Origin: Candidatus Cloacimonadales bacterium
GTDB lineage: Bacteria > Cloacimonadota > Cloacimonadia > Cloacimonadales > JAFGVF01
Length of the DNA stretch: 64,000 nt
Assembly (NCBI GenBank): GCA_963678315.1
Contig: OY782781.1
Coordinates: 1,710,071 to 1,774,070 of the forward strand
Direction of reading: 5' to 3'
The position numbers were made by a program, and so were the translations under genes. How positions within the stretch are numbered: the first letter of the stretch is position 1; every line of letters starts with the position of its first letter. Of this stretch, positions 1 to 56,262 are shown in pieces. Under the pieces are notes generated by a model, which was not told the DNA's origin, searched no databases, and saw nothing but the letters and a program-made list of their open reading frames with translations.

Positions 1-360
1 CTCTTTGTTGATTAACCCTTACAGGGTATCAATGGATTTGGGATTGTAGCCATCCCTGGCTACGAAAAGATTTGCGTAAGCATGAATAAAGTTCAGCCTA
101 TCGGCGGATGCTTACACTCCTATGGTTAAACTGGGATTGTAGCCATCAGTCTTCGCCTGACACGGTTCCAGTTTGTCAATATTACCCCAACGGGGTAAAT
201 TATCCAAAGCCCATGATTTCAATCATGGGTAGCAATAGTCCCCAATATTACTAGTCCTAGAGGGACTTCTTTATCAAATATATAGCTAGCCAACATCAGA
301 AAAGTACTTTCAGCACTATCTAACAATTATATGCTCTTACCTAGCTTTAAAAAGCTAGGC
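1..360. repeat. Mosaic hairpin-module repeat cluster R1, left part (cut by window edge, split by the IS at 361)
   Basis: Same ordered modules as 6251-7428 and 14805-15431: GGATTG-gtagcca/tggctac hairpin-GAAAAG (41-69), gcgtaagcat/atgcttac stem (74-115), aaactggga/tccagttt stem (128-174), ccccaacgggg, 20-bp palindrome cccatgatttcaatcatggg (210-229), agtcc-tagag-ggact, and cctagcttt-aa-aaagctagg (340-359). Confidence 0.9.
339..360. repeat. Left copy of the 22-bp direct duplication flanking the IS (hairpin-containing target)
   Basis: ACCTAGCTTTAAAAAGCTAGGC is identical to 2032-2053. Empty-site copies of the host repeat (e.g. 6498-6519) have it only once. Confidence 0.85.
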
Positions 361-2031
361 CAGACTGCTGACAAAGTAGAAAAAAGGTGTTTACAGCCAA
401 TTTTAGTTTTCATCTGATAGTTGATAGATTTTTTAGTATTGGTGATGATATTGTTGCATAAGTTCACTATGGGAGACAATATACCCAAAATAATCAAAAA
501 ATTTGAGTATTTTTGTTAAAATAGAACCCTTTTTTAGCTTTTTATTGATTCTCTTAAAGTATTTAACTAATTTTACTAAATTTTGAGTACAAGCTGTCAT
601 TAGAGCTTGTTCTTTAACTTTTTCAAGTCCTCTATATCGTGCATATCGATATCCATGATTTTGTTTTGCATTAGCAAAACTCCTCTCAATAGTCTCTTTT
701 CGTCGCTTATAAATCTCTTTACCACAGAATGTTAAACGATTCATATTTATCTTGTCTTTATATTTTTCCCAGACATGCCGATTTAGTACTTTCCTCCTTG
801 TTTTATTTGAAGTACATTTAGATAAATGAGGACAGTTTTTACAGTCTTCAGCATTTGATACGTATTCTTTGTAGCCCTCTCTTCTTGTTGTTTTGTAATG
901 TAATAATTTGTTATTTGGACAAATATATTGGTCGTTGACTGAGTCAAATTTGAATTTATTCTTGCTGAAAAATCCTTTTTTATGGCTACCTCTTTTGTAC
1001 CCTATTACCCCCATTATTCCTTTTTCACATAAAAAACGACAATTATCTACAGTATTATACCCAGCATCTAAGCCTACAGCTATAACATTAAAATTAAACC
1101 TTTCAATCTGCCGAAGAAGACGAGATTTATATACCACTGCATCATTTATATTCCCAGGTGTTATAAATACATCTGTTATAAAATTACATTTAGGATCCGT
1201 TGTCCTATGGTCTAAATAAAAGAAGCCTTGTGGTTTGCGGTCTCGTGCCATAAAACCACTGTCTGGATCTGTTGTGCTGGATTTAATTGTCTTGGTTTCT
1301 TCCTGTGGTTCCTTAGGAGGAAGTGGTTTTATATTGTGTTTTTTTCTGTCTTCTGCGACTGCTTCATCCAAATCTTTAATATATTCTTTTGTAGTTCTTT
1401 TTACTACAATTTTTATGAACTTATTCTTATTCGCATTAGCTTTTATATGGGTTGAGTCTGTATATAAAATTTTCCCATTAACTAAACCATTTTCAATGCC
1501 TAACTTAACAATATTATCAAAAATCTCTTGAAATAAATCATTATTAGCAAATCGTCTTTTACGAGTTTTACTTATAATTGAATGGTGAGGAATTTTATCA
1601 TTAAATCCGAACCCTAAAAACCATCTATATGCAAGATTAACTTGTATTTCTTTAAATATTTGACGTTCTGATTTAATACCAAAGAGATAACCTATTAATA
1701 TTATTTTAAAAAGAGTTATTGGATTAATAGCAGGTCTACCAAAAGTCTCATTGTATGTGTCTTTCATTATATCATAAACGAAAGAGAAATCTATATATTC
1801 ATCAAAAAACCTAAGGATATGATCGTCTGGAACCTGTTCTTCTAAATTTACAAGCTCGAATTCGTATTGTTTTCTATATTCTTCTTTAATCATTTTATCA
1901 CCTCTAATTATATGCCTATCATATAATAAGGAGTAATATTGTCAAGTCTATTTGTGCTTTTTCTGGGTTGTTTAGTACAGAAAAAACATACGAAAATCAC
2001 ACATTGATTACATGACTTTGTCAGCAGTCTG
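361..2031 (-). mobile_element. IS1182-family (IS5-like) insertion sequence, 1671 bp
   Basis: Perfect 17-bp terminal inverted repeats CAGACTGCTGACAAAGT (361-377 and reverse complement of 2015-2031). Single transposase ORF. Flanked by a 22-bp direct duplication ACCTAGCTTTAAAAAGCTAGGC (339-360 and 2032-2053) that is single-copy in the uninterrupted repeat units. Confidence 0.9.
433..1893 (-). CDS. DDE transposase, IS1182/IS5-type (InsH-like N-terminal domain plus C-terminal DDE domain)
   Basis: 486-aa ORF. N-terminal FGRPAINPITLFKIILIGYLFGIKSERQIFKEIQVNLAYRWFLGF is the typical IS5/IS1182 N-domain. C-terminal ...YKRRKETIERSFANAKQNHGYRYARYRG signature. RBS GAGGTGA lies upstream of the ATG. Confidence 0.9.
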   Translation of the reverse strand: MIKEEYRKQYEFELVNLEEQVPDDHILRFFDEYIDFSFVYDIMKDTYNETFGRPAINPITLFKIILIGYLFGIKSERQIFKEIQVNLAYRWFLGFGFNDKIPHHSIISKTRKRRFANNDLFQEIFDNIVKLGIENGLVNGKILYTDSTHIKANANKNKFIKIVVKRTTKEYIKDLDEAVAEDRKKHNIKPLPPKEPQEETKTIKSSTTDPDSGFMARDRKPQGFFYLDHRTTDPKCNFITDVFITPGNINDAVVYKSRLLRQIERFNFNVIAVGLDAGYNTVDNCRFLCEKGIMGVIGYKRGSHKKGFFSKNKFKFDSVNDQYICPNNKLLHYKTTRREGYKEYVSNAEDCKNCPHLSKCTSNKTRRKVLNRHVWEKYKDKINMNRLTFCGKEIYKRRKETIERSFANAKQNHGYRYARYRGLEKVKEQALMTACTQNLVKLVKYFKRINKKLKKGSILTKILKFFDYFGYIVSHSELMQQYHHQY

Positions 2032-2236
2032 ACCTAGCTTTAAAAAGCTAGGCTTTGGACAACTAATCCTTTCAGGATAACATCTGAAACTCTTGCCTTT
2101 AGTCCGGCTGCATTCAAGCATGATTAAAGATGCACATTCAGAAAGGACTGTGATCGGCGAAGACGATTGAATGCACCCCCTCCAAAAAAGGATTGCAAGC
2201 ATCCCTGGCTACGAAAAGATTTGCGTAAGCATGAAC
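2032..2236. repeat. Repeat cluster R1, right part (continues the unit interrupted by the IS)
   Basis: Continues ...cctagctttaaaaagctaggctttggacaa-atcctttcaggat-...tagtccggctg, then the gcat(t/g)caagcatgatt(a/g)aagatgc(a/g)cattcagaaaggactgtgatcggcgaagacgattgaatgcac module, then ggattgcaagcatccctggctacgaaaagatttgcgtaagcatgaa. Collinear with 7184-7395 and 15283-15431. Confidence 0.9.
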
Positions 2237-2285
2237 TTAGGTACACAGGGAAAGTTTATAGTTAATAAAATAATGTATAAATATA

Positions 2286-2314
2286 TTGACAATATAAAAT
2301 TACTAATAATATTT
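2286..2314 (+). promoter_or_regulatory. Putative sigma70-type promoter for the 2439 gene
   Basis: TTGACA at 2286-2291 followed by an A/T-rich -10 candidate (TAATAT/ATATTT) 15-17 nt downstream. The -10 assignment is ambiguous. Confidence 0.3.
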
Positions 2315-2438
2315 AGTTAAAACTTGTTTTGGAAAGATATTTTACAATAGGTATTTGAGAAAGTTTGGTATTGTAGAAATTGTAGTATCAATATTATGGG
2401 CAAAAAAATACTTGGTAACCTAATCAGGAGGCAGATAA

Positions 2439-5400
2439 ATGAAGAAAATAGCTTTAACTTTTTTATTAATAGTTATTGTAGTAGAAGTTTTTTGTATAAG
2501 TCATGAAGAAGGCGATTTAGTAGAGTTTTTCTTTGGAGAAGAGAACAATTGTGAATATGATAACTGGGTATCTCATGTATCGGAAAAACAGAATTTTAAT
2601 AGTCAAAATACTTATGCTCCCTTTGATGTACAAACGAATGGATTTGGCCAATTTACAATGGCAAGTTCTCAGCAATTAACTTCATGGCAAAGTGCAGTGG
2701 ATTTATTTTTCAATGAAGAGTATGAGCTAGCTCAAGAAACTTTAATAGCATCTAATATTCCATATAAAGTTGTAGGGTTTATATATAATGATCAAGAATA
2801 TATGATGCTAAGGGAAGATATTAATTTGCAATACAATGATGATAATAATACAGACGATGAAAGCGATGATGAATTGGGTGCATTTGATTTTGGTTGGGGA
2901 ATATTTATATATAATCCAGCATCAGGGAGCCCTGCTATGGTGTCAGTTCCTCATCCTAACGATAGTTTTGTAGGAACTTATCTAAGTGTTCAAGCATTTC
3001 TAGATTGCAATTGTAAATATCTTATGATTAATGGGACAGGTAGAGAGTTAAATACAAATCAATGTGACCCAACAAGAAACAGTAATCATCCTTATGTCTA
3101 TTTCTATGAAAAGGCAGCTAATCAAATAAGATTGACCCAAGAAAGACATGAGATTGCTTTGCAGTTTGAATCATACGATTGGGACAAACATGAAGCTATG
3201 GCAAGTGTTCAGTTATCAGGTAAAATCGAATCACCCTTGGGACTTCCAGTTAGAGACTGGTCTAGTAGTCATAATGATGTAATTCAAAATACTGATTACA
3301 TTGTGTTTGAAGAAGATTACTTTGGTAATAATAGTTTAGTTAACTTGAACGAATATTATGGACTTTATGAAAAGTATTCTATACCAACTATTTATCACGA
3401 TTCTCTATTTACATCTGGTCCTATCGATATTGTTGGATATACTGGATCTTCATTGACTGAAGTAAATATCCAGGATTATAATTATTGGTCATCTTATAGT
3501 CCCTTTATACATATTGCAGTAGATGAATTTCCAAACTGTTTTGAGCAAACAGAAGAAAATTATTTCTGGTTTTATGGCTATAATAATATGGATAATACTT
3601 GGGATTGGGAAAATAGATATAGCAATTGTGTTGAATATTATCATCCATTCATGACCGCATTAAATGAAGCACTAAATTGCTTTACTCAAATGGAGGATGG
3701 GGATAATCTCCCTCCAGCAGTAACTAATTTAAATTCTGAAAATACATTTAATGGTGTGAAGTTAAGTTGGCAAGGCCAAACTCCCTATGATTTTGATTCT
3801 TATCTACTTTATGTTTCAGAAACTCCGATAAGTAATGGTAATTATACGGTCTATGATAGTTCAGAAGAGAATGGATTGTATCAGCTAGGTTTTCCAGGTA
3901 CAAAGAATGTTCTTATAGAAGATCTAAATGTGGGAACAGATTATTATTTCGCCATTGCTCAGCGTGATGTTTACGGCAATGTTTCAGAAATCTCGAATGA
4001 AAGCAACTCTACAACTTTACAAGCTTCTTTTAATAGATTTAGAACTATTGTAAAACAAGACACTATCGTTGTTGAAGCTTTTATTGAGGAAAGCACAAAT
4101 TGTTCTTTATTTAGGCTTTACAGGAAAGAAGAAGGTCAAGAATATCAAGAATTATATAGTGGGAATTATATAAATCGCTACTATGATTCTGATATAGAAA
4201 ATGATCTTGTTTATTCTTATAAGGTTTGTGCAATTAGCAACCTAAATGAGTTAATTCAAGTTTCACCTGAGTTGACAGCTTCTTGTCCTACATATCACAA
4301 GCTACAGTTGTCTGGTGGTAATCTTTTAACCGATTTTACTTTTGGCAAAAGCTCATGTGCAACAGATGGCTATGATTTAGGTTATGATCAAAACTATGAT
4401 ACTATGAATAGTTTTGAACTTTACTCGGAAATAGACTATTTGCAGGTCGCGAATGGGCAGGTAGAAAGAGAAGTTATTGGTGAATTTGATAGTAATGAAA
4501 CATACCATAAATTTGATTTACATTTATACGCTCCTTATATAGGAACTTCTGATCTAGTCTTCTCTATGAGTAGTGATGATCTTGCTAATACAACAGACAA
4601 ATTCTATATTTCCTACAATAATGAGCTTTATAATCTAAGAGAGGGAGATATCCAGCTTTCTGTCGAAACAACTAACCATGCTTTTGAACTATATTGGGGT
4701 AATCTCCCTGCAAATGTAAGCTTTGCTAATGATTCAGGAATCATTAGTGGAAGAGGTATCTCAGATTCAATTGAGTGGACAAGCCAGTTTCCTGAACTAG
4801 TTGATTCTTATTCTGTATATTTCAAGAATGAGCAAGATTCTATATTAGTAGCTGATAACTTATCATCAGATATATCTAGCATTGACTGGGAATATCAAGG
4901 CAATGAAACTATAAGATCAATCAATTGCTATGTTATGGTTCACACTTTACAAGGGCAAGATATTGTCTTTAAGAATAACCACTCTTCTTTACTTTTGGGT
5001 AATTTAGATAATATAATTTTAGATAATGAAGAATCTTCGAACTGGTTAGTATCATATCCTTTTTCTCAAGCTCAGAATATCAATGAAATTAGTAATCTAG
5101 ATCAAGTATATTCTTTTAACAATGGCGAATATCTTCAGCAGGATAACATCATTAATAATGAAGGATATCTCGCTGTTATCAATGGATCTGTTGAAATCTC
5201 TATTTTAGGTGAATGTCTAGTTGATGAAAATACTATCTTTTTAAATCAAGGTTGGAATTTAATTGCTAATCCTCATCCTATAGAATATAATGTGTCAGAC
5301 TTACTATTCTACTATGGAAACACTTTTAGGTCACCTAGTTACGTTATAACTCAAGAAGCAATTTCTCCTTACTTTATGGGGATTAGAAATGATTCTTACA

Positions 5401-6236
5401 GCGAAATAAGGACAATAAAGTCTTATGAAAGTGTGTTTGTTTATGTCTTAACTGATGAGATGATAGGGCTACAATTTAATCCTAACCACCAAGAAAACTT
5501 TAACATAACTGAAGAATCAGGTCAATATGCTAGTCTAGAATTTTCCACTATTACTGGAGCAAAAGATCAAATTACTATTGGAGTTTCTGGTAATCAGTTT
5601 GGGCAGTTTGATACATTCAATCAACTTGTTAAACCGCCCTCAAGACCAATAAGTGGTTTAAATGAAGTATGTCTGTTAGACTTGAATGATGAGAGTATTA
5701 AGCTGCAAAAGCAACTTCTTCCACAGGAACTTGATGGAGAATATTCTTGGAATTATGCTTTTACTAATAGTCAAGATGCCAATGTTCAGGTTAAGATAGT
5801 AGACCATAATCTTAATTCAAATTCTAGTGTAGAATTAGCTCTTAATGGACAGATCTATAATATTACTGAAAACCCAATAACTATTGATTGTAATAATACT
5901 CCTGGTAACTACCAAGGATGCTTGTATCTCGATTCTCCTACTTCAAATTCTCATGATAGTGAAGCTGTAACTGGTGTTTTATCAGTTTACCCAAATCCAT
6001 CATCCAAAAAGTTTAACATTGAGGTTGTAAGCTCTAAATCAAATTACCAAGTATCTATCTATAACATCAAAGGACAAAGAGTTAAAAAGTTCAATGTGAG
6101 GGATAATAAATCATCAAGAAATACTCTTACTTGGGGAAAAGATAACTCATTAAATAACATCGCTTCAGGAATTTACTTTGTTAAATATTCTGATAAAGAT
6201 ACAAGTGATATAAGGAAGATCTGTTTGATTAAGTAG
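2439..6236 (+). CDS. Giant secreted surface protein (1265 aa) with FN3-like domain and T9SS C-terminal sorting domain
   Basis: RBS AGGAGG and an N-terminal signal peptide (MKKIALTFLLIVIVVEVF). FN3-like segment PPAVTNLNSENTFNGVKLSWQG...YYFAIAQRDVYGNVS. C-terminal tail VYPNPSSKKFNIEV...SIYNIKGQRVKKF...SGIYFVKY is typical of Por_Secre_tail. Confidence 0.85.
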   Translation: MKKIALTFLLIVIVVEVFCISHEEGDLVEFFFGEENNCEYDNWVSHVSEKQNFNSQNTYAPFDVQTNGFGQFTMASSQQLTSWQSAVDLFFNEEYELAQETLIASNIPYKVVGFIYNDQEYMMLREDINLQYNDDNNTDDESDDELGAFDFGWGIFIYNPASGSPAMVSVPHPNDSFVGTYLSVQAFLDCNCKYLMINGTGRELNTNQCDPTRNSNHPYVYFYEKAANQIRLTQERHEIALQFESYDWDKHEAMASVQLSGKIESPLGLPVRDWSSSHNDVIQNTDYIVFEEDYFGNNSLVNLNEYYGLYEKYSIPTIYHDSLFTSGPIDIVGYTGSSLTEVNIQDYNYWSSYSPFIHIAVDEFPNCFEQTEENYFWFYGYNNMDNTWDWENRYSNCVEYYHPFMTALNEALNCFTQMEDGDNLPPAVTNLNSENTFNGVKLSWQGQTPYDFDSYLLYVSETPISNGNYTVYDSSEENGLYQLGFPGTKNVLIEDLNVGTDYYFAIAQRDVYGNVSEISNESNSTTLQASFNRFRTIVKQDTIVVEAFIEESTNCSLFRLYRKEEGQEYQELYSGNYINRYYDSDIENDLVYSYKVCAISNLNELIQVSPELTASCPTYHKLQLSGGNLLTDFTFGKSSCATDGYDLGYDQNYDTMNSFELYSEIDYLQVANGQVEREVIGEFDSNETYHKFDLHLYAPYIGTSDLVFSMSSDDLANTTDKFYISYNNELYNLREGDIQLSVETTNHAFELYWGNLPANVSFANDSGIISGRGISDSIEWTSQFPELVDSYSVYFKNEQDSILVADNLSSDISSIDWEYQGNETIRSINCYVMVHTLQGQDIVFKNNHSSLLLGNLDNIILDNEESSNWLVSYPFSQAQNINEISNLDQVYSFNNGEYLQQDNIINNEGYLAVINGSVEISILGECLVDENTIFLNQGWNLIANPHPIEYNVSDLLFYYGNTFRSPSYVITQEAISPYFMGIRNDSYSEIRTIKSYESVFVYVLTDEMIGLQFNPNHQENFNITEESGQYASLEFSTITGAKDQITIGVSGNQFGQFDTFNQLVKPPSRPISGLNEVCLLDLNDESIKLQKQLLPQELDGEYSWNYAFTNSQDANVQVKIVDHNLNSNSSVELALNGQIYNITENPITIDCNNTPGNYQGCLYLDSPTSNSHDSEAVTGVLSVYPNPSSKKFNIEVVSSKSNYQVSIYNIKGQRVKKFNVRDNKSSRNTLTWGKDNSLNNIASGIYFVKYSDKDTSDIRKICLIK

Positions 6237-6311
6237 TAATCGTTTCTATGGGTTGCAGTCAGCTTGACTGCGAAAGTATTTAACTGGGATTGTAGTGTAG
6301 CCATAAGTCTG

Positions 6312-7270
6312 AGTCTCACACGGTCCCAGTTTGTCCATAAAACCCCAACGGGGTAAATTATCCAAAGCCCATGATTTCAATCATGGGTAGCAATAGCCCC
6401 CAATATTACTAGTCCTAGAGGGACTTCTTTATCATATATATAACTACCCAACATCAGAAAAGTACTTTCAGCACTATCTCAACAATTATATGCTCTTACC
6501 TAGCTTTAAAAAGCTAGGCTTTGGACAATTAATCCTTTCAGGATAACATCTGAAACCCTTGCCTTTAGTCCGGCTGAGTTTCACACGGTCCCAGTTTGTC
6601 TATAATACCCCAACGGGGTAAATTATCCAAAGCCCATGATTTCAATCATGGGTAGCAATAGACCCCAATATTACTAGTCCTAGAGGGACTTCTTTATCAT
6701 ATATTTAGCTAGCCAACATCAGAAAAGTACTTTCAGCACTATCTTACAATTATATGCTCCTACCTAGCTTTAAAAAGCTAGGCTTTGGACAATTAATCCT
6801 TTCAGGATAACATCTGAAACTCTTGCCTGTAGTCCGGCTGAGTTTCACACGGTCCTAGTTTGTCCATAATACCCCAACGGGGTAAATTATCCAAAGCCCA
6901 TGATTTCAATCATGGGTAGCAACAGATCCCAATATTACTAGTCCTAGAGGGACTTCTTTATCATATATATAACTAGCCAACATCAGAAAAGTACTTTCAG
7001 CACTATCTAACAATTATCCCAGATGATGCATTAGGTTTGACGAAAATAGTGGAGATTATTTCAGCAAAATAGCTTCCAGAATCGAAGCTTGAATAATATA
7101 TATTCTAGTTGAGATTATGGAAGTTATTCTTGCCAAATAATATAGTGCTATTTTTCAAGTCCTAGTGCATTATTTGGGATTATATGCTCTTACCTAGCTT
7201 TAAAAAGCTAGGCTTTGGACAATTAATCCTTTTAGGATAACATCTGAAACTCTTGCCTTTGGTCCAGCTG
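6312..7270. repeat. Tandem array of three 264-265-bp units (6312-6576, 6577-6840, 6841-7270 with a MITE at 7018-7178)
   Basis: The units align end to end with only scattered substitutions. Each carries ccccaacgggg, cccatgatttcaatcatggg, agtcctagagggact, aaagtacttt, cctagctttaaaaagctagg and atcctttcaggat. Confidence 0.95.
7018..7178. mobile_element. 161-bp MITE-like non-autonomous element inserted into repeat unit 3
   Basis: Imperfect terminal inverted repeats of about 34 bp (cccagatgatgcattaggtttgacgaaaatagtg vs reverse complement of agtgctatttttcaagtcctagtgcattatttggg). No ORF. Flanked by a 5-bp duplication ATTAT (7013-7017 and 7179-7183) that is single in uninterrupted units (acaattatatgctc). 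Confidence 0.8.
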
Positions 7271-7498
7271 CATGCAAGCATGATTGAAGATGCGCATTCA
7301 GAAAGGACTGTGATCTGCGAAGACGATTGAATGCACTCCTACAAAAAAGGATTGCAAGCATCCCTGGCTACGAAAAGATTTGAGTAAGCATGAACAAATT
7401 TCAGCCTATCGGCGGATGCTTACACTCCAATAGTGGCAGCAAACAACCAAAACAATAGCAAATAGTTAACAACTATCAACCTTTTCATAAAAAAAGTA

Positions 7499-13394: not shown

Positions 13395-13398
13395 TGGA

Positions 13399-14793: not shown

Positions 14794-14804
14794 GGACTAG
14801 TGGA

Positions 14805-45282: not shown

Positions 45283-45311
45283 TTGACATATTAATTAAAG
45301 ACTTTATAGAT
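45283..45311 (+). promoter_or_regulatory. Putative sigma70-type promoter for the cyclase-STAND gene
   Basis: TTGACA (45283-45288), 16-nt spacer, TATAGA (45305-45310). Confidence 0.4.
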
Positions 45312-45329
45312 ATGAGTTGATAGAACTAT

Positions 45330-48300: not shown

Positions 48301-49115
48301 ACTGTCAAGCAATTGAAGTATCACAGAATATAAACAATAAATTCAATGAGAAGATAGCATCAATAGGGGCCGGCGTTGCCTGTATGAACATGGGTAAACT
48401 ATCAAAAGCAAAGACTTATTTATTTAAGGCTAAGGAGATTGCACAGAATATTGGAGATATAACAGGTTTGAACAGGATATTATTAGAGCTTGCTATTATT
48501 GAACGTAAGGAAGGCAATAAAGATAAAGCTCTAGCTACATATCAGGAAATCTATGTCTCTGCTATGGATGAAGGTGATTTACAGCATGCTTCTACTATAT
48601 TATATAATATAGCCGAGTACTATTATTCCAATGAAGACAATGATTCAGCCTTAGAATATCTATCAAAAGCTCTCAAAATCCAAGAACGTATCAATGATAA
48701 AGCAAGTATTTGCTATAGCTATGACATGATGGGGGATATATATTTCTCTAATGGAGACTTAGAAAAAGCAGAATCTATCTATTCACAGAATATTAATAGG
48801 CAAAAAGAAGTTGGAGATAATGTAGGGCTTGCTCACAGTAATATGAATCTTGCCAACATCCTACTTTCTCGTAAAGAATTTGATAAGTCTTTACCACTAT
48901 ATTTAGAGCAAATTAGAATTCTTGAAAGCTTGAAAGATGTAGAAGGTCAAGGTAAGGCAAACTATAATGTTGGGGTCAACTTTTATTATCTAAAGGATTT
49001 AGATAATTGTATAAAGCATCTAAGGTTAGCAGAAGAGAAATTCATTGAATGTAATAATAAAGATCTTCTTGCATCTGTGCAAGCTTTATTAGGGAAACTT
49101 GTTCCTAAATCATAA
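45330..49115 (+). CDS. Multidomain signalling protein: two class III nucleotidyl cyclase homology domains, P-loop STAND/AAA NTPase and TPR array
   Basis: CHD1 has FFDISGFT and KFSGDAF. CHD2 has GIIGNAINISARLMS. Walker A is IYGDSGMGKS. The C-terminal third is TPR-like (repeated ..A..Y..AL.I....GD..G...). The start may be ATG 45360 (AAGGA RBS). Confidence 0.85.
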   Translation: MYIAKNKGIAMKKENLSKLSAYVPRIIEKIISDNNLCELPAYFESLQNAGIIFFDISGFTSITERVTSEGYYGVEVITNILNSYFDIMVPLIHKNGGSIVKFSGDAFLAMFPLEKTRFFTRMTAYKEEVAQCLSELNKQFQDLYNFEISIHGGYSYGQVKVQLVSNRKQIYDYIVIGNAVSEAYELCNQAQTGEILGNEIVDVDVFEQNRPSLLELTEVRSSLIESFITKEVGSKLTEALFEAELRFCSILFVGIVPISNEFFTVEQLQRCYQAVSDVVATTGGMINKIDYTDKGYMLIITYGQLVIYDDQIMRAVKCAQELTKIEDKDFYFKIGFTTGSIYSGKIGSNIRAEFGIIGNAINISARLMSLCKANEVTFSQQILSSIRKYTSYNFIGKQKLKGIKDDIEVYKLSVGKNVTKSLYDNRYKDVKYVEIYEQLNFANIDKINKVTAIYGDSGMGKSLSIYKILDNLDSNEFFLSELYEFNKYKIYGFIESLLSSIIGIISMRLQYEDIYKFAEDNNIVIDRTLLQNVFLNENANLSEAEMEIVDNFFVEVIYIYISQYKFLLIDNFDYIDSKSKIIVERLIKKLTNSDIKIILTSHSKLSSEIIASSLIENIELTSLDDNKSESYIRSQIPNISDGAVARLAKIANGNILNLTELCNQILSVKQGSLQIINNDNLNMMFKEGKVANSIESYYLRSYDKLNEEMKTILKIASIIGSMFQFEFVQNLSSQVVNKLDEDLLEHLCQGQYLRLHSKNPESFYVFKNQLFHQAVYKTIPLNEKIKYHKSIAQYLESKYEDSLKDYYEIIAQHFYFSKNKDKTAKYALLAAEKSLSLCLYNQCYYFCKMVISSKQDNAVLAKIIAIEVLTLVKRKDLAKQYIDEISDLVTGELICRYYYAQALYYFSNSDYSKVLSLSLDRSFCNEFYFIRTQLFVLDSYRFLNRKVDFTRLVKNIEKVLTKDSLLLVQLKNIYAQYYIDTSQFELSLITYCQAIEVSQNINNKFNEKIASIGAGVACMNMGKLSKAKTYLFKAKEIAQNIGDITGLNRILLELAIIERKEGNKDKALATYQEIYVSAMDEGDLQHASTILYNIAEYYYSNEDNDSALEYLSKALKIQERINDKASICYSYDMMGDIYFSNGDLEKAESIYSQNINRQKEVGDNVGLAHSNMNLANILLSRKEFDKSLPLYLEQIRILESLKDVEGQGKANYNVGVNFYYLKDLDNCIKHLRLAEEKFIECNNKDLLASVQALLGKLVPKS

Positions 49116-49132
49116 CTAAAATGAGGTTAAAT

Positions 49133-49543
49133 ATGAAAATAAAACTAGTAAATACAGTTGTTCATGCTGAGAATTTTGAATTAGTTAAGAATTGGTATGT
49201 AAAAACCTTTGATTTGAGCGTAACTGAATATCCAGAAGAAGCAGGGAACTATGTTGACTTATCTTCAGAGGGGCAAGACATTGTTGGAATTGCTCAAAAT
49301 GATAATAAGAATCATCCTTTACCATCACCTAGAAGCAATGGGCAATATCTGCAAATATCTTGTTCACATATATTTACTATATTTGAAAGAGTTAAAGCTA
49401 ATGGTGGTAGTGTTACTTGGGGACCAGAACGTGGTAATGGTTATTGGTGTGGGGAAGTACTTGATATAGAAGGTAATCAGATATGGTTATTCACTCCTGA
49501 TTCAGATTTAGTAGAAAAAGTCCCCGATCGATATAAAAGTTAA
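49133..49543 (+). CDS. VOC/glyoxalase-family small protein
   Basis: About 136 aa. The pattern VVHAENFELVKNWYVKTFDL...GYWCGEVLDIEGNQIWLF is typical of the glyoxalase/bleomycin-resistance fold. The track start 49121 is less likely than ATG 49133. Confidence 0.65.
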   Translation: MKIKLVNTVVHAENFELVKNWYVKTFDLSVTEYPEEAGNYVDLSSEGQDIVGIAQNDNKNHPLPSPRSNGQYLQISCSHIFTIFERVKANGGSVTWGPERGNGYWCGEVLDIEGNQIWLFTPDSDLVEKVPDRYKS

Positions 49544-49557
49544 TTAGTTAAAGATAA

Positions 49558-49597
49558 ATAAAAAGTACCGATGTTATTTAACACCGGTACTTTTGTT
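49558..49597. terminator. Bidirectional intrinsic terminator between convergent genes
   Basis: AAAAGTACCGATGTT (49561-75), loop, AACACCGGTACTTTT (49580-94), with an A-run on one side and a T-run on the other. Confidence 0.8.
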
Positions 49598-49611
49598 ATT
49601 CTATGTTTTAT

Positions 49612-52600
49612 TTATTTTTTAGATCTTCTTTCAAAGGGTTCAATATATCTTCTATAGTCTTTGATATTATCATAGCTTCTATAAGATTTTCTCTTTATAG
49701 CTTTACTCTGAGATAAGTTCTTCTTGCTAGCATTTACAGTATGTCTTGTAGGAACATATTTCACTTTATAGAATCTTAAATCATCTGTTGATACAATATT
49801 GAACCATAAATCACTACTTGATCCTATTTGCTCATAGTCTGATAAGTTGTGGCTCTCATATATTTGGTAAGTCACATTACGACTTTCAACATCTTCTGGT
49901 TGTTGCCAGCTAATATGTACCTGATTATTTCTTTCAGTAATATCAAGATCATTTATCCATTTAGCTGTACCTGCCTCTTCTTCTTCTTCTTCAGTATGAA
50001 TAATGTCTAGACCTTGAATGTCAACATGACTTTCATAATTTCCAAGAGAGAAATGTAATCTTAGATCAACATTATATCCTGCATATTCATTAAATTTCAC
50101 AATTAGTTTTGGTGAGTTTGGACTACTAAAATCTACATATAATGTGTCAAAGCCTAAGCCCATGTTAGACAATGCTTGTTGGTCATAGCAATCTATTTCA
50201 TATAGATTAATTAGTGTATCTTCAGGCATATAGTATTCACCATAGATGGTAAAATAATTTAGCATCAAAGGTGGTTCATCAATACCACTCCAACCCCAAG
50301 AAGCCTGATCTACCCATTCAAAGTTGTATTGAGTTTCAATAACTACTTCTTTACCAATCTCTAATTGCGGATAAAGTAGTTCATCTGTATCATTGTCATC
50401 ATCAATATCGTTGAAATCTTGTAAAGTTTGATACTCATAATACCAGCTTGTTCCATGCTGATATTCAAAATTAAAGCCTTCAACTATGTAAGATGAATAA
50501 TAACCATCATAGTAGTAGTCTGTCTCTTCAACATTTTTTAACATTCCATGCCATTCAATATTATGGTGTTTTGCACCAATTCCCAAGCCTGTTATTCCTG
50601 TGCTTGGATCTGGTGTATAATCATGATTATTGGTGTCTATGAACATAGGATTATCATAGATATTTGAATATCCATAAATGCCAGTTTCACCAGAATTAAT
50701 CAATGAATAGTTGATTGAAATTTCTTGATTTTCTCCAATGAATGGTGCTTCAGAATATTCTTCACTCCAAAAAATAGACCTATGAGCATATATTTGAGAG
50801 TTATCTAGAATTCCGAATGTTTGATAATTAGAAAAAGTAGACTCATATATACTAATAGTACTATTGTTTGTTAAATCAAGTGGAATATAGCCTTCATCAA
50901 TATCGTAATCATCATAGAATATAGAGCCCCACATTTCAGCAATACTATTATTAAGAGCAATTGAAGTGTTACAATAAGCATAAGTACAATAACTTAAATC
51001 ATCACCATATCCCTCTGAAATGCTAACAGCTTCCTGTAGTTGATTATAACTATTATATCTTAAGTTACTATAAGCTCCTATTGTATTAATTCCTATACCA
51101 GGGTTATTAGGTCCTCTACCGTTTATGACAGTATTTTCAACCCTAATTTCAACATCAGAGAGATAGATTGCTTGGCTGTGAATAGCAGTATGATATCCAT
51201 TAATTACACAATTATCTATATATGTGTCTGATATATCATATAAGCCAAATCCGATTGAGGATTCTGAGTCTTCTGCAAAATAGCTTAGTCTTAAACCCCA
51301 GAAATTAGCTTGATTGACAAATTCAATTCCACTTGAATTATAACTTATTCCCTTAGGATAGTTGGAAATAGCACCTGTTTGAACATTCAAAAGTACATTT
51401 CCTAAGCCATGAATACCAATTTCATCATAGTCTGGGAAGTCGTAAGAACGATTTAAATTAATGTTACTTATGTCCGCTGATGTTTGAATTTCTGTATTCT
51501 GATTAATGATATTGATAGCTGTTTTTGTAGAATCTATATCAATATAATCCATGGTTACATTATATAGACCATAGAGAACAATACCACTACTAGAATTTTC
51601 ATAATTGTTTCTAATTGTAATATTGTTGAAGGTCGGTTCAGAAACAAGAGTGAAATCGTTTCCTGTTTCAAAATAGATACCATTGGTAAAACCTCTAATC
51701 TCCATATCTTCTAATGTTGGAGATGCTGGACAGTCAAATCTAATACCAGCATTATCAGTTCTTGAAGAGTTAGAAGAATTTTTAACTCTAACACCTGTCA
51801 TCAATGGAGCTATCAAATCTTCATTATCATCAAGGAATTCATTAAAATAGATACCATAATCATAACCTTCAATATCAATATCATCTATTTCAGGAGAGCA
51901 CTTGTAATCAACAAAAATACCATATTGACCACCACGTGAAGAGTTAGAAGAATTTTTTACTCTAACACCTGTCATTAGTGGGATTAACTCCTGAGTATCA
52001 TCATAAGTTCCATGATTATTCTTTAACTCAATACCTATATCATAATCTTCAATATCAACATTATTAATTTGCGGTGCAGATGCATAACCAACTGCTATAC
52101 CTCGGGAAGTAGTACGTGAAGAATTAGAAGAATTCTTAACTCTAACACCTGTCATTAAAGGAATATCTAGGCCTTCATCATCTAAGAAAGAACCATTGTT
52201 ATCTATATCAATACCAGTTGAGAAACCTTCAATATTTATGTTTTCTATTTCAACTTTATAAGAACCCAGAGCTTTAATTCCTGTTCTTTCATTTCTAGTT
52301 TCTTCTGTGTTTATTAGGTTTGTGTCTCTAATTTTAACTTGATTAGATTGTAGTTCAGATTCATTACTTAGAACAATACCTTGTTCTACATTGATTAAGG
52401 AATCTGCAGCAATTTCTATATTCCTAACATTAGCAACTTTAATACCAATTCTATCAGTACGTGATGAGTTTGAAGAATTTTTAACTCTAACACCAGTCAT
52501 CAATGTTAAATCTAAACCATCATTATCATCTAATTCAATACCTATATCGTAGCCTGATATGTCTATACCATTAGTTGAAATTTGAGTATTGCTTACTTTC

Positions 52601-55296
52601 AGACCTGAACTTGAAGCACCACCATCAGCTTTACTTAGCTTTACATTATTAAGAGTTACATTAGAACGGTTTCTTGTATTATCTGTAGAAGTTAATTCAA
52701 TACCGCCAGCAAAATTGTTAAACTCTGAATTGTTTATAATTATATCAGAATCTTCTACATAAAGACCTTTACCAGAGTTTAAACTATCTTGACTGCTTAA
52801 CTTAATATGGTCCAGTGAACTAATATTACGAGTTCTACTTTCAGATCCAATAATTCTAATACCTTCATTATATCCAGCTATCTCCAATGAATCTATTGTA
52901 ATAGCACCGTTATTAATAACTTGAATTGCGTATCGTTCACCTTCTTCTTGATTAACTCTAGATATCATACAATGAGACAAGTTTAGTTCTGCATGGTCAA
53001 CAATAATTGCTGTTGAAGCATCTTCGAAAGAACAATCTTCAAGCATACTTTCTCTTTGGTCATTTGAGAAATACATGCCTTCCCAGCCATTTCCATTAGA
53101 TCTGAAATTAACATTCTGAGCCTCAACAGTTCCCTCAATATTTAAACTAGCCCCCTCTGAAAGAATAACTTCAGCTCCTGCTTGAATGACAAGAGTTGAA
53201 TCTTCGTCAATAGTATGATTTTGTGTAATAGCAATTGAGCCCTGCCAGTTGTTTGACTCAGGGTTTTCTTTAGGAACAACATTTACTATAATAGAAGATG
53301 TTGATTGATACATTTGATTTGCTACAGTTAAATCAACTTGATATTGACCTTGGAACATAAATGTATAAGCTGGATTCTCTTCGAAAGATATTTCACCTGC
53401 AAGGTTCCATTGAGATGAAGTATATACACCAGTAGAAGCATTTACAAATTGTATCTCTGTACCTGCTTCAACATCTAATGTTATATCTAGGTTACTTACT
53501 TCGATAATACTTTGTACTTCTCCAAATGTAGAAATATAATCTGTCATAACTAAAGTGTTAGTTTCATCATAAGCATTGGTAACTGTTAATGATACACTAT
53601 AATGTGACGAAGTTTCATAACTATAAGAAGGATTTTGTTCATAGGAATCTATATTTCCATCATTATCAAAATCCCACTCCCATGATATAGGGTCTCCACC
53701 AGATAAGTCAGTAAATTGCACCATCTCTCCAATTTCTGGACTTTGATTATTAACTGTGAAATTTGCTATGAGTTGATCTATCACAACTACTTGTCGTGTA
53801 TATATAGATTCTCTGTTATTGTCTGTATCTCTAACAGTTAAAGTGACGGTATAATCTCCTACCTCACTAAACTGATACATAGGGTTAGTAGCATTAGAAT
53901 CTATTATCCCATCACTATTAAAATCCCACATAAACATAATATTGTCATTAATTGAGAAAACATCTGTTCCACTTAAAGCTTCAAATTGAGTGTTATTAAC
54001 CAAGTATATTGGTTCTATATCTAATGAAATTCTTGCTGAAACCCATGGTAAATATGGCATAGCCCCATCGATTAACCAGATATCATTAAAATTAAATCCA
54101 TAATTACTATAAGTTATTTGGTCTGTAGATTCAAAAATATCCATTTGCTGAACATTTGAATTTCCAGATTGATTGAAGCCCATACCTAATTCATTATTAA
54201 CATAATCTGGGTCTGTGTTTAAATATAGAACATTTTCTATTGTAGAATCTCCTCCATTAAAACCAGCAAACAAACCGACATTAGTGTATCCTGTAACATT
54301 TCCTGTAGAATAACAATGCTCTATATTAGCATTATTACTGTTTGAAGCAACAAAACCACCACTGTTTATTCCAGAAGCATTGACATTACCAGTTGCATAG
54401 CAGTTTTCTATATTTCCACCATTATTCTCACCAACAAAGCCACCTATTCTACTATTACCAGTGACGTCTCCTTCTGCATAACTGTTTATTATTGCTCCAT
54501 CATTTTTACCAATAAGTCCACCAACATAATCGTAACCATTGATATTTCCTGAGCTTGAACAGTTTTGAATTGTTGAATTATGAACTGATTCACCTGTAAT
54601 TCCACCAATGAAATAATACAGACCTGTTACATCTGACATTGAAGAACAGTTTGATATAGATGAATTATACCATAATGCACCGGCAATACCACCTACTTTC
54701 TTATAATCACCATTGATTGTAGCATTACTTGTTGATAAGTATATTTCAGAATTATGTGAAACTAAACCAGTAATTCCACCTAAAAGTTGAGAATGTGCTA
54801 CTATATTTCCAGTTACAGAACACCCTTCAATACAAGCATATTCAGTTATAAGCCCAGCTACAGCACCAACTGCACTTTGTCCATTTATATCAACATTTTC
54901 TAACTCAAGATTTCGAATCTTTCCACCTAAAACATAACCAAACAAACCTATATTGCTATGATTTGGTCTGTTTATAAATAGATTTGTAATCTTGTAACCG
55001 TTACCATTGTAGTTACCAGAGAATTTATTCGAATCATAGTTGTTGTAATTATCACCAATTGGTTTAAATCCCATTCCATTATTTAAAGCCAATGATGCAG
55101 ATGCATCAATATCATTAACTTGGATAAAATAGCTATTCCAACAGGCTTGATTGTTACTAATCCAAACTAAATTGTCTAAGCTTTCTACCTGATAAGGTGC
55201 TTCAGATGTACCTTCACCACTTTGTGGCATTACACCTTGAGCAAAAAAAGTTAATGTAAAACATATGACAAATAACATTAACAAATTTCTTTTCAT
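49612..55296 (-). CDS. Giant secreted protein (1894 aa): N-terminal GLUG-motif repeats, three PKD domains, long parallel beta-helix with near-identical internal repeats, C-terminal FN3-like module and basic tail
   Basis: Signal peptide present. GLUG-type repeats (VGAVAGLI, LGGITGLV, VGGIAGAL, IGGITGES, VGGLIGKN, IGGFVGEN). PKD-like FMWDFNSDG..YTVTLTVRD and WEWDFDNDG..YSVSLTVTN. Four copies of LMTGVRVKNSSNSSR. No Por_Secre_tail. Confidence 0.85.
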   Translation of the reverse strand: MKRNLLMLFVICFTLTFFAQGVMPQSGEGTSEAPYQVESLDNLVWISNNQACWNSYFIQVNDIDASASLALNNGMGFKPIGDNYNNYDSNKFSGNYNGNGYKITNLFINRPNHSNIGLFGYVLGGKIRNLELENVDINGQSAVGAVAGLITEYACIEGCSVTGNIVAHSQLLGGITGLVSHNSEIYLSTSNATINGDYKKVGGIAGALWYNSSISNCSSMSDVTGLYYFIGGITGESVHNSTIQNCSSSGNINGYDYVGGLIGKNDGAIINSYAEGDVTGNSRIGGFVGENNGGNIENCYATGNVNASGINSGGFVASNSNNANIEHCYSTGNVTGYTNVGLFAGFNGGDSTIENVLYLNTDPDYVNNELGMGFNQSGNSNVQQMDIFESTDQITYSNYGFNFNDIWLIDGAMPYLPWVSARISLDIEPIYLVNNTQFEALSGTDVFSINDNIMFMWDFNSDGIIDSNATNPMYQFSEVGDYTVTLTVRDTDNNRESIYTRQVVVIDQLIANFTVNNQSPEIGEMVQFTDLSGGDPISWEWDFDNDGNIDSYEQNPSYSYETSSHYSVSLTVTNAYDETNTLVMTDYISTFGEVQSIIEVSNLDITLDVEAGTEIQFVNASTGVYTSSQWNLAGEISFEENPAYTFMFQGQYQVDLTVANQMYQSTSSIIVNVVPKENPESNNWQGSIAITQNHTIDEDSTLVIQAGAEVILSEGASLNIEGTVEAQNVNFRSNGNGWEGMYFSNDQRESMLEDCSFEDASTAIIVDHAELNLSHCMISRVNQEEGERYAIQVINNGAITIDSLEIAGYNEGIRIIGSESRTRNISSLDHIKLSSQDSLNSGKGLYVEDSDIIINNSEFNNFAGGIELTSTDNTRNRSNVTLNNVKLSKADGGASSSGLKVSNTQISTNGIDISGYDIGIELDDNDGLDLTLMTGVRVKNSSNSSRTDRIGIKVANVRNIEIAADSLINVEQGIVLSNESELQSNQVKIRDTNLINTEETRNERTGIKALGSYKVEIENINIEGFSTGIDIDNNGSFLDDEGLDIPLMTGVRVKNSSNSSRTTSRGIAVGYASAPQINNVDIEDYDIGIELKNNHGTYDDTQELIPLMTGVRVKNSSNSSRGGQYGIFVDYKCSPEIDDIDIEGYDYGIYFNEFLDDNEDLIAPLMTGVRVKNSSNSSRTDNAGIRFDCPASPTLEDMEIRGFTNGIYFETGNDFTLVSEPTFNNITIRNNYENSSSGIVLYGLYNVTMDYIDIDSTKTAINIINQNTEIQTSADISNINLNRSYDFPDYDEIGIHGLGNVLLNVQTGAISNYPKGISYNSSGIEFVNQANFWGLRLSYFAEDSESSIGFGLYDISDTYIDNCVINGYHTAIHSQAIYLSDVEIRVENTVINGRGPNNPGIGINTIGAYSNLRYNSYNQLQEAVSISEGYGDDLSYCTYAYCNTSIALNNSIAEMWGSIFYDDYDIDEGYIPLDLTNNSTISIYESTFSNYQTFGILDNSQIYAHRSIFWSEEYSEAPFIGENQEISINYSLINSGETGIYGYSNIYDNPMFIDTNNHDYTPDPSTGITGLGIGAKHHNIEWHGMLKNVEETDYYYDGYYSSYIVEGFNFEYQHGTSWYYEYQTLQDFNDIDDDNDTDELLYPQLEIGKEVVIETQYNFEWVDQASWGWSGIDEPPLMLNYFTIYGEYYMPEDTLINLYEIDCYDQQALSNMGLGFDTLYVDFSSPNSPKLIVKFNEYAGYNVDLRLHFSLGNYESHVDIQGLDIIHTEEEEEEAGTAKWINDLDITERNNQVHISWQQPEDVESRNVTYQIYESHNLSDYEQIGSSSDLWFNIVSTDDLRFYKVKYVPTRHTVNASKKNLSQSKAIKRKSYRSYDNIKDYRRYIEPFERRSKK
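51750..52510 (-). repeat. Four intragenic repeats encoding (P)LMTGVRVKNSSNSSR, conserved at nucleotide level
   Basis: Roughly 45-nt cores at about 51761, 51934, 52114 and 52459 (plus-strand c(g/t)tga(a/t)ga(g/a)tt(a/t)gaagaatt(c/t)tt(a/t)actctaacacc(t/a)gtcat). The flanking repeat sequence has diverged. Confidence 0.85.
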
Positions 55297-55574
55297 AATT
55301 ATACTCCTTGATTATAATTCATTATTAACGATCAAAACACAATACTAATTATCTACTAAATAATAAAATAGGCAATCTTTTTTTTAATAAATATTTCTTA
55401 ACTAAGGTCCTTTCTTTACACATTAAGTTTTTAAGAATTACTGCGAAATCTGATAAAAGGAGCTTATGTACTAATAATAGTCATCATTAACAATTTAGCA
55501 TTTATGATTTATCTGATATAAAATGAGTTTTCTTTCAGCAAAGATATGACTTTTTGACTGTAATTTATATTAGT

Positions 55575-56262
55575 GGTAAGGTCGTGCTTACTGGCCTCTT
55601 TGAAAAAAAGCCGATTTTTCAATGAGGCAAGTAAGGGAGGAGTTAGGAGTGAGTTTAGGAGTGTAAGCATCCACCGAAGGTTGAAGGAACTTCATGCTTA
55701 CGCAAACTATAGAGACGAACGAATGTTCGTCTAAATCAAAAATGAAGGAAGAGAGTTGAGATGAGATCCATTTTATCACCCATGGTTAAACCATGGGCTC
55801 TTTATTGATTTACCCTTACAGGGTATAAATACCTTTATGTCCCTTGGGGACATCTCACCACAAAGCCCATGATTTCAATCGTGGGTGATGTTAGAAGTTA
55901 GGACATACTGGTACCGCCTGCCTCTTTTAGGGGTGGTTTCAATCGTCTTAGCCGATTACGGTCCCTTCTGAATGCGCATCTTTAAACATGCTTGCATGGT
56001 TAAAGAGAAAAAACTTATCTTTTGGAGTGCATTCATCCCTGAATGCGCATCTTTAAACATGCTTGCATGGTTAAAGAGAAGATACTTTAACATCATTCTT
56101 GATGAATGATGTTTCGCAAGCAAGGACTGTGACAGGCGAAGACTGTTGCTGGCAAGCCAAAGTGAATTTGTAGAGACGTTCTGCAAAAGGTCTCAAACGT
56201 AATCTACAGTCTTTACTGTCACAGTACTATTTTTGTAAAAGCTAATGCATCATCTGGGATAA
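55575..56262. repeat. Repeat cluster R6 (inverted orientation relative to R1-R3 and R5)
   Basis: Contains reverse complements of the long ccttgaaaaa/tttttcaagg-type hairpin, a short heptamer array, the gcgtaagcat/atgcttac module, cccatggttaaaccatggg, tacccttacagggta, gtcccttggggac, cccatgatttcaatcgtggg and the atgcgcat/catgcttgcatg module (duplicated). It ends with a solo MITE end (56221-56258). Confidence 0.9.
55968..56079. repeat. 41-bp direct repeat x2 (period 71 bp) inside R6
   Basis: ctgaatgcgcatctttaaacatgcttgcatggttaaagaga occurs at 55968-56008 and 56039-56079. Each copy contains the nested hairpin tctttaa-a-catg-cttg-catg-g-ttaaaga. Confidence 0.9.

Follow-up and report, generated by a model that had tools for sequence, protein, structure and literature searches.

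Six clusters of repeated, hairpin-rich DNA (R1 to R6) lie in the spacers of a 64,000-nt stretch of the genome of a Candidatus Cloacimonadales bacterium (contig OY782781.1, ~32% G+C; hereafter the window, in whose positions all feature coordinates are given). These clusters mark structural change between 98%-identical strains, including the presence or absence of a two-gene block of adhesins of the type IX secretion system (T9SS). The explanation that we prefer, with a probability of roughly 0.6 for the whole of it, is that the clusters are mosaic arrays of hairpin-forming, non-coding, selfish or neutral DNA elements placed outside transcription units, which are enriched beside surface-protein genes and are sites of strain variation. 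The Cloacimonadota are uncultured bacteria, abundant in anaerobic digesters and sediments, and their surface proteins form the interface with substrates and phages; recombination between such arrays would be a concrete and testable mechanism for the turnover of the surface repertoire in this phylum.

The clusters and their parts are given below. Genes are named by product or by first coordinate and are listed further on.

R1, left part: 1-360, + strand; fragment of a two-hairpin unit (1-33), module A (38-122), module B (123-171), module C (172-360).
Hairpin of the repetitive extragenic palindromic (REP) type, CCCATGATTTCAATCATGGG: 210-229, inside module C of R1.
R1, right part: 2032-2236, + strand; modules D (2054-2110), E (2111-2179) and A' (2183-2236), upstream of the 2439 gene.
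R2: 6237-7460, + strand; tandem array of a 264-bp unit (6309-7017; 2.7 copies, 95% matches), a miniature inverted-repeat transposable element (MITE; 7018-7178), modules D-E-A (7179-7434).
R3: 14805-15431, + strand; modules A and B', two-hairpin units, modules C, D and E; it lies upstream of the promoter region of infC.
Terminator-like hairpin after thyX: 36300-36323; R4 lies between it and the stop codon of the FG-GAP gene.
R4: 36326-36581, + strand; essentially one MITE copy (36369-36580), one base short of the FG-GAP stop codon.
R5: 40391-40719, + strand; small G+C hairpins, a two-hairpin unit (40496-40543), a heptamer tract (40572-40637), hairpin X (40636-40691).
R6: 55587-56263, - strand; hairpin X, module A, several hairpins, module E twice, a solitary MITE end (56246-56258).

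Self-comparison of the window detected repeated DNA at 1-377, 2015-2236, 6279-7434, 14852-15431, 36370-36584, 40606-40686 and 55587-56263, and beyond the cluster intervals it gave none except coding repeats. The clusters are thus where an earlier note on this DNA had put them, and all its positional statements hold, among them that the housekeeping run is free of clusters: no cluster sequence was found at 15.86-36.28 kb by self-BLAST or by BLAST against a library of sister-strain clusters, which matched only the cluster spacers of the window. The modules of R1, R2 and R3 follow one constant order, A-B-C-D-E-A, at 91-98% identity, and in R6 these modules recur on the opposite strand with 82-87% identity. 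The clusters are nevertheless heterogeneous; R4 is only a MITE, and R5 has only one long hairpin, a heptamer repeat and small hairpins in common with the others. It is flanked by the terminator-like hairpins that belong to gpmA and to the vWA gene. R6, which includes a REP two-hairpin unit at 55837-55886, separates the 5' ends of the GLUG gene and of the rnfD/nqrB-like gene, and most of its modules are on the - strand, which is that of the GLUG gene.

The clusters differ from the rest of the window in several respects. First, 26 of the 33 perfect hairpins with a stem of at least 7 bp fall in cluster spacers, which make up 7.9% of the window (binomial p ~6e-23). Secondly, compared with shuffled sequence, the folding of cluster DNA gave z-scores from -4.3 to -13.7. 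Thirdly, the G+C content of the clusters is 35-44%, against 15-27% in the other spacers except that of the 6S RNA (37%). The two-hairpin unit is built of an 8-bp stem, CT, a spacer of ~12 nt and a G+C stem of 4-6 bp, with stem sequences that vary by family. Five exact copies and one near-exact copy of CCCATGATTTCAATCATGGG were counted, and six of CCTAGCTTTAAAAAGCTAGG; further hairpin families are present too, and all of these lie in spacers. The heptamer ACTCCTA, repeated 9.4 times in tandem in R5 (40572-40637), adjoins hairpin X, and its complement (GGAGTTAGGAGTGAG...) adjoins X in R6 (55638-55665) and likewise in the sister strain, so that hairpin and heptamer seem to travel as one module.

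The sister strain is represented by a second complete contig (ERZ21831104 ctg97479l; 3,016,564 bp), of which three fetched loci, covering window 2028-43942 and 46060-64000 (~60 kb), were compared with the window at 97.5-99.3% identity. A block of 8,786 bp, comprising the 7588 gene, the 11577 gene and an insertion sequence (IS) of the IS4 type, is present only in the window and is bounded by direct repeats.

239-bp direct repeat, left copy (C-D module): 6338-6576, + strand, in R2.
239-bp direct repeat, right copy: 15124-15362, + strand, in R3; 98.7% identical to the left copy.

At the corresponding sister locus (L024) the sequence of window 2028-6576 runs straight into that of 15124-25023, with an overlap of 238 bp, one module copy and no extra bases, and in a three-way alignment the sister follows R2, then the shared module, then R3. 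The proteins of the 7588 gene, the 11577 gene and the IS4 element have no relative of at least 90% identity in the sister genome, and no sister-genome protein was found among the homologues of the 7588 protein; in the search for these, similarity of the C-terminal domain proved no guide to proteins from one genome. Only one close homologue of the 7588 protein came to light (P0141, 60% identity). It is accompanied by a 605-aa partner on contigs from other samples, one of them labelled marine metagenome, where the two genes occupy another locus, flanked by a Gate-domain gene and leuS. Direct repeats of ~150-175 bp and 96-98% identity bracket this pair as well, and they are built from the hairpin modules of its own species. 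The strain comparison shows that near-identical modules at separate spacers can act as substrates for homologous recombination, presumably of the RecA type, and that one event would suffice to add or remove an 8.8-kb two-gene block. The syntenic comparison by which the earlier note had proposed to look for strain-variable cassettes with breakpoints inside clusters therefore gave a positive answer: the cassette is absent from the sister, and the junction lies inside the 239-bp module common to R2 and R3. As a general statement, that clusters mark core/accessory boundaries, the proposal stands for R2 and R3 but not for R5 and R6, which vary only internally and whose neighbour genes are present in both strains.

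Variation between the two strains was concentrated in the clusters. All six cluster regions either differ structurally or adjoin a structural difference, compared with none of the five other spacers that were compared; counted as variable spacers, the figures are 5-6 of 6 against 0 of 5 (p = 0.002-0.013). Within the ~60 kb, all indels of at least 3 bp are in clusters, apart from the tandem FG-GAP paralogs, whose alignment has a few gaps of 3-5 bp. R1 holds an IS1182-like element in the window and a MITE in the sister, which has a 281-bp tandem array there as well. The R5 spacer is 431 bp long in the window and 1089 bp in the sister, with extra modules, and an internal segment of R6 measures 482 bp in the window against 156 bp in the sister, with the modules reordered. 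Even at 98% identity between strains, modules of the arrays have therefore been gained, lost and reordered.

The change next to R4 is of another kind. The FG-GAP gene is single in the window (36582-38240) and a tandem pair in the sister (L022 11670-15005). In their 3' 500 bp the two sister copies hardly differ, but they diverge in the 5' two-thirds, where the window gene is like copy b. As the window gene resembles copy b in the only distinguishable part and the 3' parts are nearly identical, unequal crossing-over between the tandem paralogs probably produced the difference, and R4 as its cause was rejected on the paralog alignment. The claim that clusters shuffle adhesin cassettes by recombination thus agrees with the 8.8-kb block but not with this change in FG-GAP copy number. 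FG-GAP/T9SS genes form tandem arrays of variable copy number: the window has a single copy, the sister a pair, and another locus of the sister (L031 10001-16522) a set of four with 18-bp spacers between them; the 3' 500 bp of the paralogs appear to be homogenised. Elsewhere in the strain comparison, rlmN (33000-34000) has 50 mismatches per kb, compared with 1-6 per kb in the rest of its run, and further divergent patches were seen at 23-25 kb, 46-47 kb and 61-63 kb. Such patchy divergence suggests frequent recombinational import between strains.

Mobile elements add to the variation of the clusters. Those of the window are as follows.

IS1182-like element: 361-2031, - strand; splits R1; perfect 17-bp terminal inverted repeats at 361-377 and 2015-2031.
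IS1182-type DDE transposase open reading frame (ORF): 433-1893, - strand.
MITE copy in R2: 7018-7178, + strand; terminal inverted repeats CCCAGATGATGCATTAG and CCCAAATAATGCACTAG; inserted at the C/D junction.
IS4-like element: 13399-14793, + strand; 18-bp terminal inverted repeats CAATGTCATTAAGTTAAG; separates R3 from the 11577 gene.
IS4-type transposase ORF: 13507-14775, + strand, within the IS4-like element.

The target duplication of the IS1182-like element is 22 bp long (ACCTAGCTTTAAAAAGCTAGGC; 339-360 and 2032-2053) and is an entire array palindrome. On a related contig (L030) a copy 98.4% identical to this element duplicates a different 22-bp palindrome, GAGACGTTTGGAAAAACGTCTC, also inside a hairpin cluster. 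Since whole 22-bp palindromes were duplicated in two independent insertions, the IS1182-like element seeks hairpins; a literature search on the targeting of palindromes by IS1182 returned nothing usable. The IS4-like element has an 11-bp target duplication (GGACTAGTGGA; 13388-13398 and 14794-14804) that overlaps the stop codon of the 11577 gene, which indicates that R3 originally abutted this gene. Both elements are absent from the sister and hence strain-specific, and the IS4-like transposase was found solely in the source genome. At 13475-13510, 14 nt upstream of the IS4-like transposase ORF and out of frame with it, stands an ATG with nine consecutive A after it; one added A would fuse the two, and the public gene call starts at the GTG at 13507, so the start of this transposase may be frameshifted or dependent on slippage.

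The MITE is a short, non-coding element of 161-212 bp with 17-bp inverted ends, a target duplication of ~5 bp (ATTAT), several copies and presence/absence polymorphism. CCCARATRRTGCA matches both ends of the copies at 7018-7178 and 36369-36580 and the solitary end at 56246-56258 (5 sites observed, 0.54 expected). The MITE site in R1, which is the same array site as that of the R2 copy, is empty in the window and filled in the sister, where the insertion is ~25 bp from the point at which the IS1182-like element entered in the window; further copies are found at L024 3490-3662 and L032 9816-9991. All three mobile elements thus lie in or against clusters, as had been noted earlier, and the idea that the clusters are insertion hot spots is strengthened by the strain specificity of the IS elements, by the palindromes twice duplicated by the IS1182-like element and by the closeness of the sister MITE to its insertion point. 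A 66-bp element of the MITE family with the same inverted ends was also seen in another genus, whose ThyX is 66% identical, just after thyX (L029 11409-11473), which is where R4 stands in the window. There the block ending in thyX is conserved, and the 66-bp element is followed by lptB and rpoN, with no FG-GAP gene, which fits a synteny break at R4.

The hairpins could be placed by their occurrence elsewhere. The 22-mer GCCCATGATTTCAATCRTGGGT was found at 20 exact loci in a set of species-representative genomes, compared with ~0.14 expected by chance. These loci belong to Verrucomicrobiota, Bacteroidota, Ignavibacteria, Balneolaceae, Methylobacter and Cloacimonadota (one short contig in the last), often with several copies each, and many of the matches are at contig ends. 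At one of them (L003 2040-3000) hairpin copies flank an ORF that matches the Pfam family Y1_Tnp (IS200-like; 5.4e-22), and at two others (L002 4735-5340 and L009 5455-6035) the hairpin flanks ORFs that match the one in L003. The distance is within ~100 bp in all three, and in L009 one copy stands on each side of the Y1-type ORF, in inverted orientation. REP elements with their REP-associated tyrosine transposase (RAYT) are defined as palindromes flanking a single IS200-like Y1 transposase gene (PMC2817692, PMC3116915). As the same hairpin flanks IS200-like, RAYT-type genes in three lineages, it is taken to be a REP-type element. The 50-nt two-hairpin unit of R6 (55837-55886) is 86% identical to Akkermansiaceae copies, and the hairpin CCCAYGATTKMAATCRTGGG, in some lineages together with the whole 50-nt unit, is conserved almost to the base from Verrucomicrobiota to Cloacimonadota. 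REPs are usually lineage-specific, and the keeping of CCCAYGATTKMAATCRTGGG across phyla therefore suggests horizontal spread of the RAYT/REP system. This base-for-base conservation is the most unusual detail of the arrays, and the occurrence of the hairpin beside IS200-like transposase genes in several phyla bears on how REP/RAYT systems spread.

Further features of known REPs were compared. No Y1_Tnp gene was found by tblastn in the window or in the fetched sister loci, and a metagenome scan with a second palindrome returned a single unrelated 24-nt match. REP palindromes carry a conserved GTAG or CGTC tetranucleotide at one end (PMC3733652); the cross-phylum hairpin is followed by TAG (GGGTAGC) in the source genome and by TAT, TCA or CTA in other lineages, and a different array hairpin, GTAGCCATCCCTGGCTAC, begins with GTAG. 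The alternation typical of bacterial interspersed mosaic elements (BIMEs) was not observed; the modules of R1-R3 are direct and in constant order, and the sole inverted pair was seen in the sister R5. No paper linking REP elements to Cloacimonadota was found in the literature searched.

At gathering thresholds Rfam reported only 6S RNA and one Acido-Lenti-1 match in the window, and identification of the clusters as riboswitch, ribozyme, large non-coding RNA or tRNA was ruled out, as no such match explains them. The Acido-Lenti-1 match (RF01687) is in a two-hairpin unit of R3 (15078-15124; 40.5 bits, threshold 37), and five related array units reach 21-23 bits, under the threshold (e.g. 2033-2079, 6499-6545, 6763-6809 and 15285-15331). 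Two inverted matches to whalefall-1 RNA were seen at L009 7701-7843, 1.7 kb from the RAYT gene. It may be that the Rfam motifs Acido-Lenti-1 and whalefall-1 are DNA-level repeat elements and not RNAs.

The earlier note had claimed that every cluster abuts a giant secreted-protein gene. The genes in question are these.

2439-6236, + strand: 1265-aa protein with signal peptide and T9SS C-terminal domain, in both strains.
7588-11523, + strand: 1311-aa beta-helix / HYDIN-type immunoglobulin (Ig) / T9SS-tail protein, absent from the sister strain.
11577-13394, + strand: 605-aa Ig/PKD protein, absent from the sister strain.
36582-38240, - strand: 552-aa FG-GAP T9SS protein, stop codon 36582-36584.
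40766-45148, - strand: 1460-aa vWA/PKD/MAM protein.
49612-55296, - strand: 1894-aa GLUG/PKD protein.

The claim describes the six clusters of the window, but the FG-GAP protein has only 552 aa, and counter-examples were found outside the window. Every large protein of the window has a signal peptide at its N-terminus, and a signal peptide with or without a T9SS C-terminal domain is a better common denominator than giant size. Among the window spacers of at least 100 bp (n = 12), a cluster is present in 6 of the 8 beside secreted or T9SS-type genes and in none of the 4 others (Fisher p = 0.03), a result that is suggestive rather than strong. When spacers of this minimum length (100 bp) were pooled over the regions sampled, elements were present in 9 of 12 beside T9SS or giant secreted genes, compared with 3-5 of 12-14 others (odds ratio 5-9, one-sided p 0.02-0.05). 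Two of these regions, the sister T9SS loci L031 and L032, were picked via FG-GAP paralogs, blind to repeats, and carry array modules on 3 of 4 flanks of their T9SS genes. In L031, with four tandem FG-GAP genes, hairpin X stands against the last stop codon and nothing was seen on the 5' side; in L032 a MITE lies directly upstream of the FG-GAP gene and modules with a partial MITE directly downstream. The remaining spacers in the 43 kb of L031 and L032 are A+T-rich and hairpin-free, except for one 33-nt match at L032 18568-18600 and the 350-bp cluster of L032. The latter, between a deacetylase gene and a sigma-factor gene, is itself a counter-example, as are, in the sister, an isolated MITE between exbB and asnS and an isolated hairpin X between asnS and an 808-aa gene, and clusters adjoining ahpC and an RND (resistance-nodulation-division) pump gene on L030. 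The link of arrays to surface-protein genes is therefore a modest enrichment and not a rule, and the suggestion that clusters are specific to giant adhesin genes is retained as a preference without exclusivity.

Could the proximity be a coincidence? Arrays may simply fill any long unconstrained spacer, in a window that by chance holds many monocistronic giant genes, and play no particular part in variation. The marginal p values given above and the several counter-examples beside housekeeping genes speak for such a reading, and no array is found in the divergent-promoter spacers at giant-gene 5' ends (38241-38652 and 45149-45329). However, both newly sampled T9SS loci carry flanking modules while most other spacers in the same 43 kb do not, the cassette junction falls exactly in a shared module, and all structural differences between the strains, the paralog event excepted, fall in arrays. 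We therefore regard coincidence as rather unlikely, though it deserves to be kept in mind.

Under the explanation that we prefer, REP-type hairpins, two-hairpin units, longer palindromes, an amplified 264-bp composite unit and the MITE make up mosaic arrays that would be selfish or neutral. Their preferred sites would be the spacers next to secreted or T9SS genes that stand alone and are dispensable, with no functional tie to giant genes. Modules common to different spacers recombine, so that the 8.8-kb two-gene adhesin block is added or removed, and the hairpin-seeking IS1182-like element, the MITE and the IS4-like element insert in or against the arrays. An IS200-like transposase of the RAYT type, with its gene at some other place in the genome, may spread the hairpins in trans. 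Several points weigh against this account. The enrichment comes from ~25 spacers in four regions of one species, is of marginal significance and is not fully separable from the monocistronic nature of surface-protein genes. Modules A, B, D, E and X have no demonstrated link to any transposase, and the argument for a RAYT elsewhere in the genome is carried over from hairpin flanks in other phyla. A single cassette indel was seen, which may be an insertion or a deletion; R5 and R6 change internally with no change in the adjacent genes; and the FG-GAP copy number changed through paralogs and not through a cluster.

A stronger version would make the arrays part of a dedicated and selected system of cassette exchange, in which a recombinase (RAYT or other) acts at the hairpins to integrate or excise adhesin cassettes. 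Much of the above could be enlisted for it: in two species direct repeats enclose the same two-gene cassette, though at different loci, three giant genes (2439, 7588 and GLUG) have E-A modules in one and the same orientation 150-300 bp upstream, elements are enriched beside T9SS genes, and the hairpin is highly conserved across phyla and tied to a Y1 transposase. A hypothesis of this sort put forward for the dRS3-containing arrays of Neisseria offers a model (PMC1797815). Yet the shared junction is a whole 239-bp repeat, as plain RecA-type recombination leaves it, with no short core site identifiable; there is no recombinase gene in or adjoining the cassette; arrays are also found away from surface-protein genes; and R5 and R6 vary with no cassette change. 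It seems improbable, then, that such a system operates. The same low probability is given to its more specific form, in which a structure-specific enzyme, e.g. a domesticated Y1/RAYT, would recognise the cross-phyla two-hairpin unit and move array-flanked T9SS cassettes within and between Cloacimonadota genomes, the bracketing repeats being its product and not a by-product of homologous recombination. Integron cassettes with attC sites are alike in having structured imperfect palindromes at cassette boundaries. They differ in that the window cassette is 8.8 kb long with its own promoter region and that its composite repeats of 150-240 bp are found, too, at places remote from cassettes; no integrase domain was found in the annotated window ORFs of at least 150 aa, and the integron reading was rejected for lack of an integrase.

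A regulatory or architectural function, with the arrays acting as terminators, mRNA stabilisers, sites for nucleoid proteins or gyrase (insulators) or small structured RNA genes, is the least probable of the explanations and is not favoured by the layout of the sequence: for all the strong predicted folding, the one unit above the Acido-Lenti-1 threshold with relatives at ~23 bits, and the binding of IHF and gyrase and stabilisation of mRNA by E. coli REP/BIME elements (PMC2817692, PMC3733652), the arrays are found at either end of genes, 5' or 3', and on either strand with respect to the neighbouring genes, R4 and R5 lie beyond the terminator-like hairpins of the flanking genes, likely promoters can be read directly in the unique sequence between array and gene, the two strains have very different array content next to flanking genes that are 98-99% identical, and the same hairpin flanks a transposase gene in other phyla. 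A promoter consensus scan gave 93 sites compared with 76 expected and is uninformative in DNA so rich in A+T. A CRISPR reading was ruled out, as the arrays have no repeat-spacer structure.

Among known systems, the closest analogue of these arrays is that of the Neisseria intergenic mosaic elements (NIMEs), in which RS elements are separated by dRS3, a 20-bp inverted repeat whose motif defines them. NIME arrays are associated with surface genes, vary between strains and contain opportunistic IS insertions; they were proposed to promote exchange of adjacent genes, the reported effect being an elevated allelic divergence of the flanking genes (PMC1797815). In both cases many families of short repeats make up long intergenic arrays, which are enriched beside surface-protein genes, with secondary repeats and IS elements inside and with length and content that vary by strain (in the window R1, R2/R3, R5 and R6). 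The window arrays differ in that they lack dRS3 (its motif ATTCCCN8GGGAAT had no match with up to one mismatch) and have REP-type hairpins and two-hairpin units as building blocks, in their host, a member of the Cloacimonadota with T9SS-type genes, and in that they bound the presence or absence of a whole gene block. Neisseria minimal mobile elements and repeat-flanked islets resemble the cassette as small blocks without mobility genes, present or absent at a fixed site between conserved genes, and minimal mobile elements are exchanged by homologous recombination (PMC1797815); in the window, however, the homology is the repeat array itself (the 239-bp direct repeats) and not conserved flanking genes.

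The arrays also resemble the BIME arrays of E. coli, and the hairpins fit the REP/RAYT kind. As in REP/BIME arrays with RAYTs, and in REPINs, short extragenic G+C-rich palindromes occur in many copies and mosaic clusters, and the hairpin flanks a Y1 gene, inverted in L009 and present also in L003 and L002. They differ in that the units of R1-R3 are mostly direct and not alternating, in that a GTAG tag is not evident for the cross-phylum hairpin, and in that an exact 22-nt hairpin is common to several phyla. In enterobacteria, IS1397 and ISKpn1 are IS elements that target REP/BIME palindromes. The IS1182-like element of the window likewise inserts specifically into array palindromes, at two different hairpins, but it is a DDE element of the IS1182 type and duplicates a whole 22-bp palindrome instead of a few loop bases. 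The arrays would also explain why short-read assemblies break at such loci, in keeping with the many cross-phylum matches at contig ends.

The other features of the window are listed in order.

Housekeeping run, first part: infC, rpmI, rplT, pheS, pheT, 6S RNA, rny, ymdB, folD.
Housekeeping run, second part: 818-aa lipoprotein, PBP1A, glycosyltransferases, ricT, rlmN, deoC, thyX.
Between the FG-GAP gene and R5: ridA, pduO, gpmA.
Between the vWA and GLUG genes: cyclase-TPR protein.
Beyond R6: rnfD/nqrB-like operon, whose 5' end faces R6.

Within the housekeeping run, a 6S (SsrS) RNA gene was identified at 21022-21196, with rny on one side and, on the other, a small ORF downstream of pheT (53.8 bits, threshold 46.4, for the 6S match), and it accounts for the lone long and fairly G+C-rich spacer of this run. 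The listed infC ORF (15700-15860 region) begins at position 43 of the IF-3 profile, so that the true start should be upstream, probably at a non-standard codon, which infC genes usually have. A strong hairpin with an 11-bp stem lies in the infC leader region (15627-15654). ThyX (34913-36277) has 454 aa, about twice the usual length, and the thyX model matched it in two stretches; it looks like a fused tandem duplication, and the ThyX homologues listed from Cloacimonadota are all of similar length (449-477 aa).

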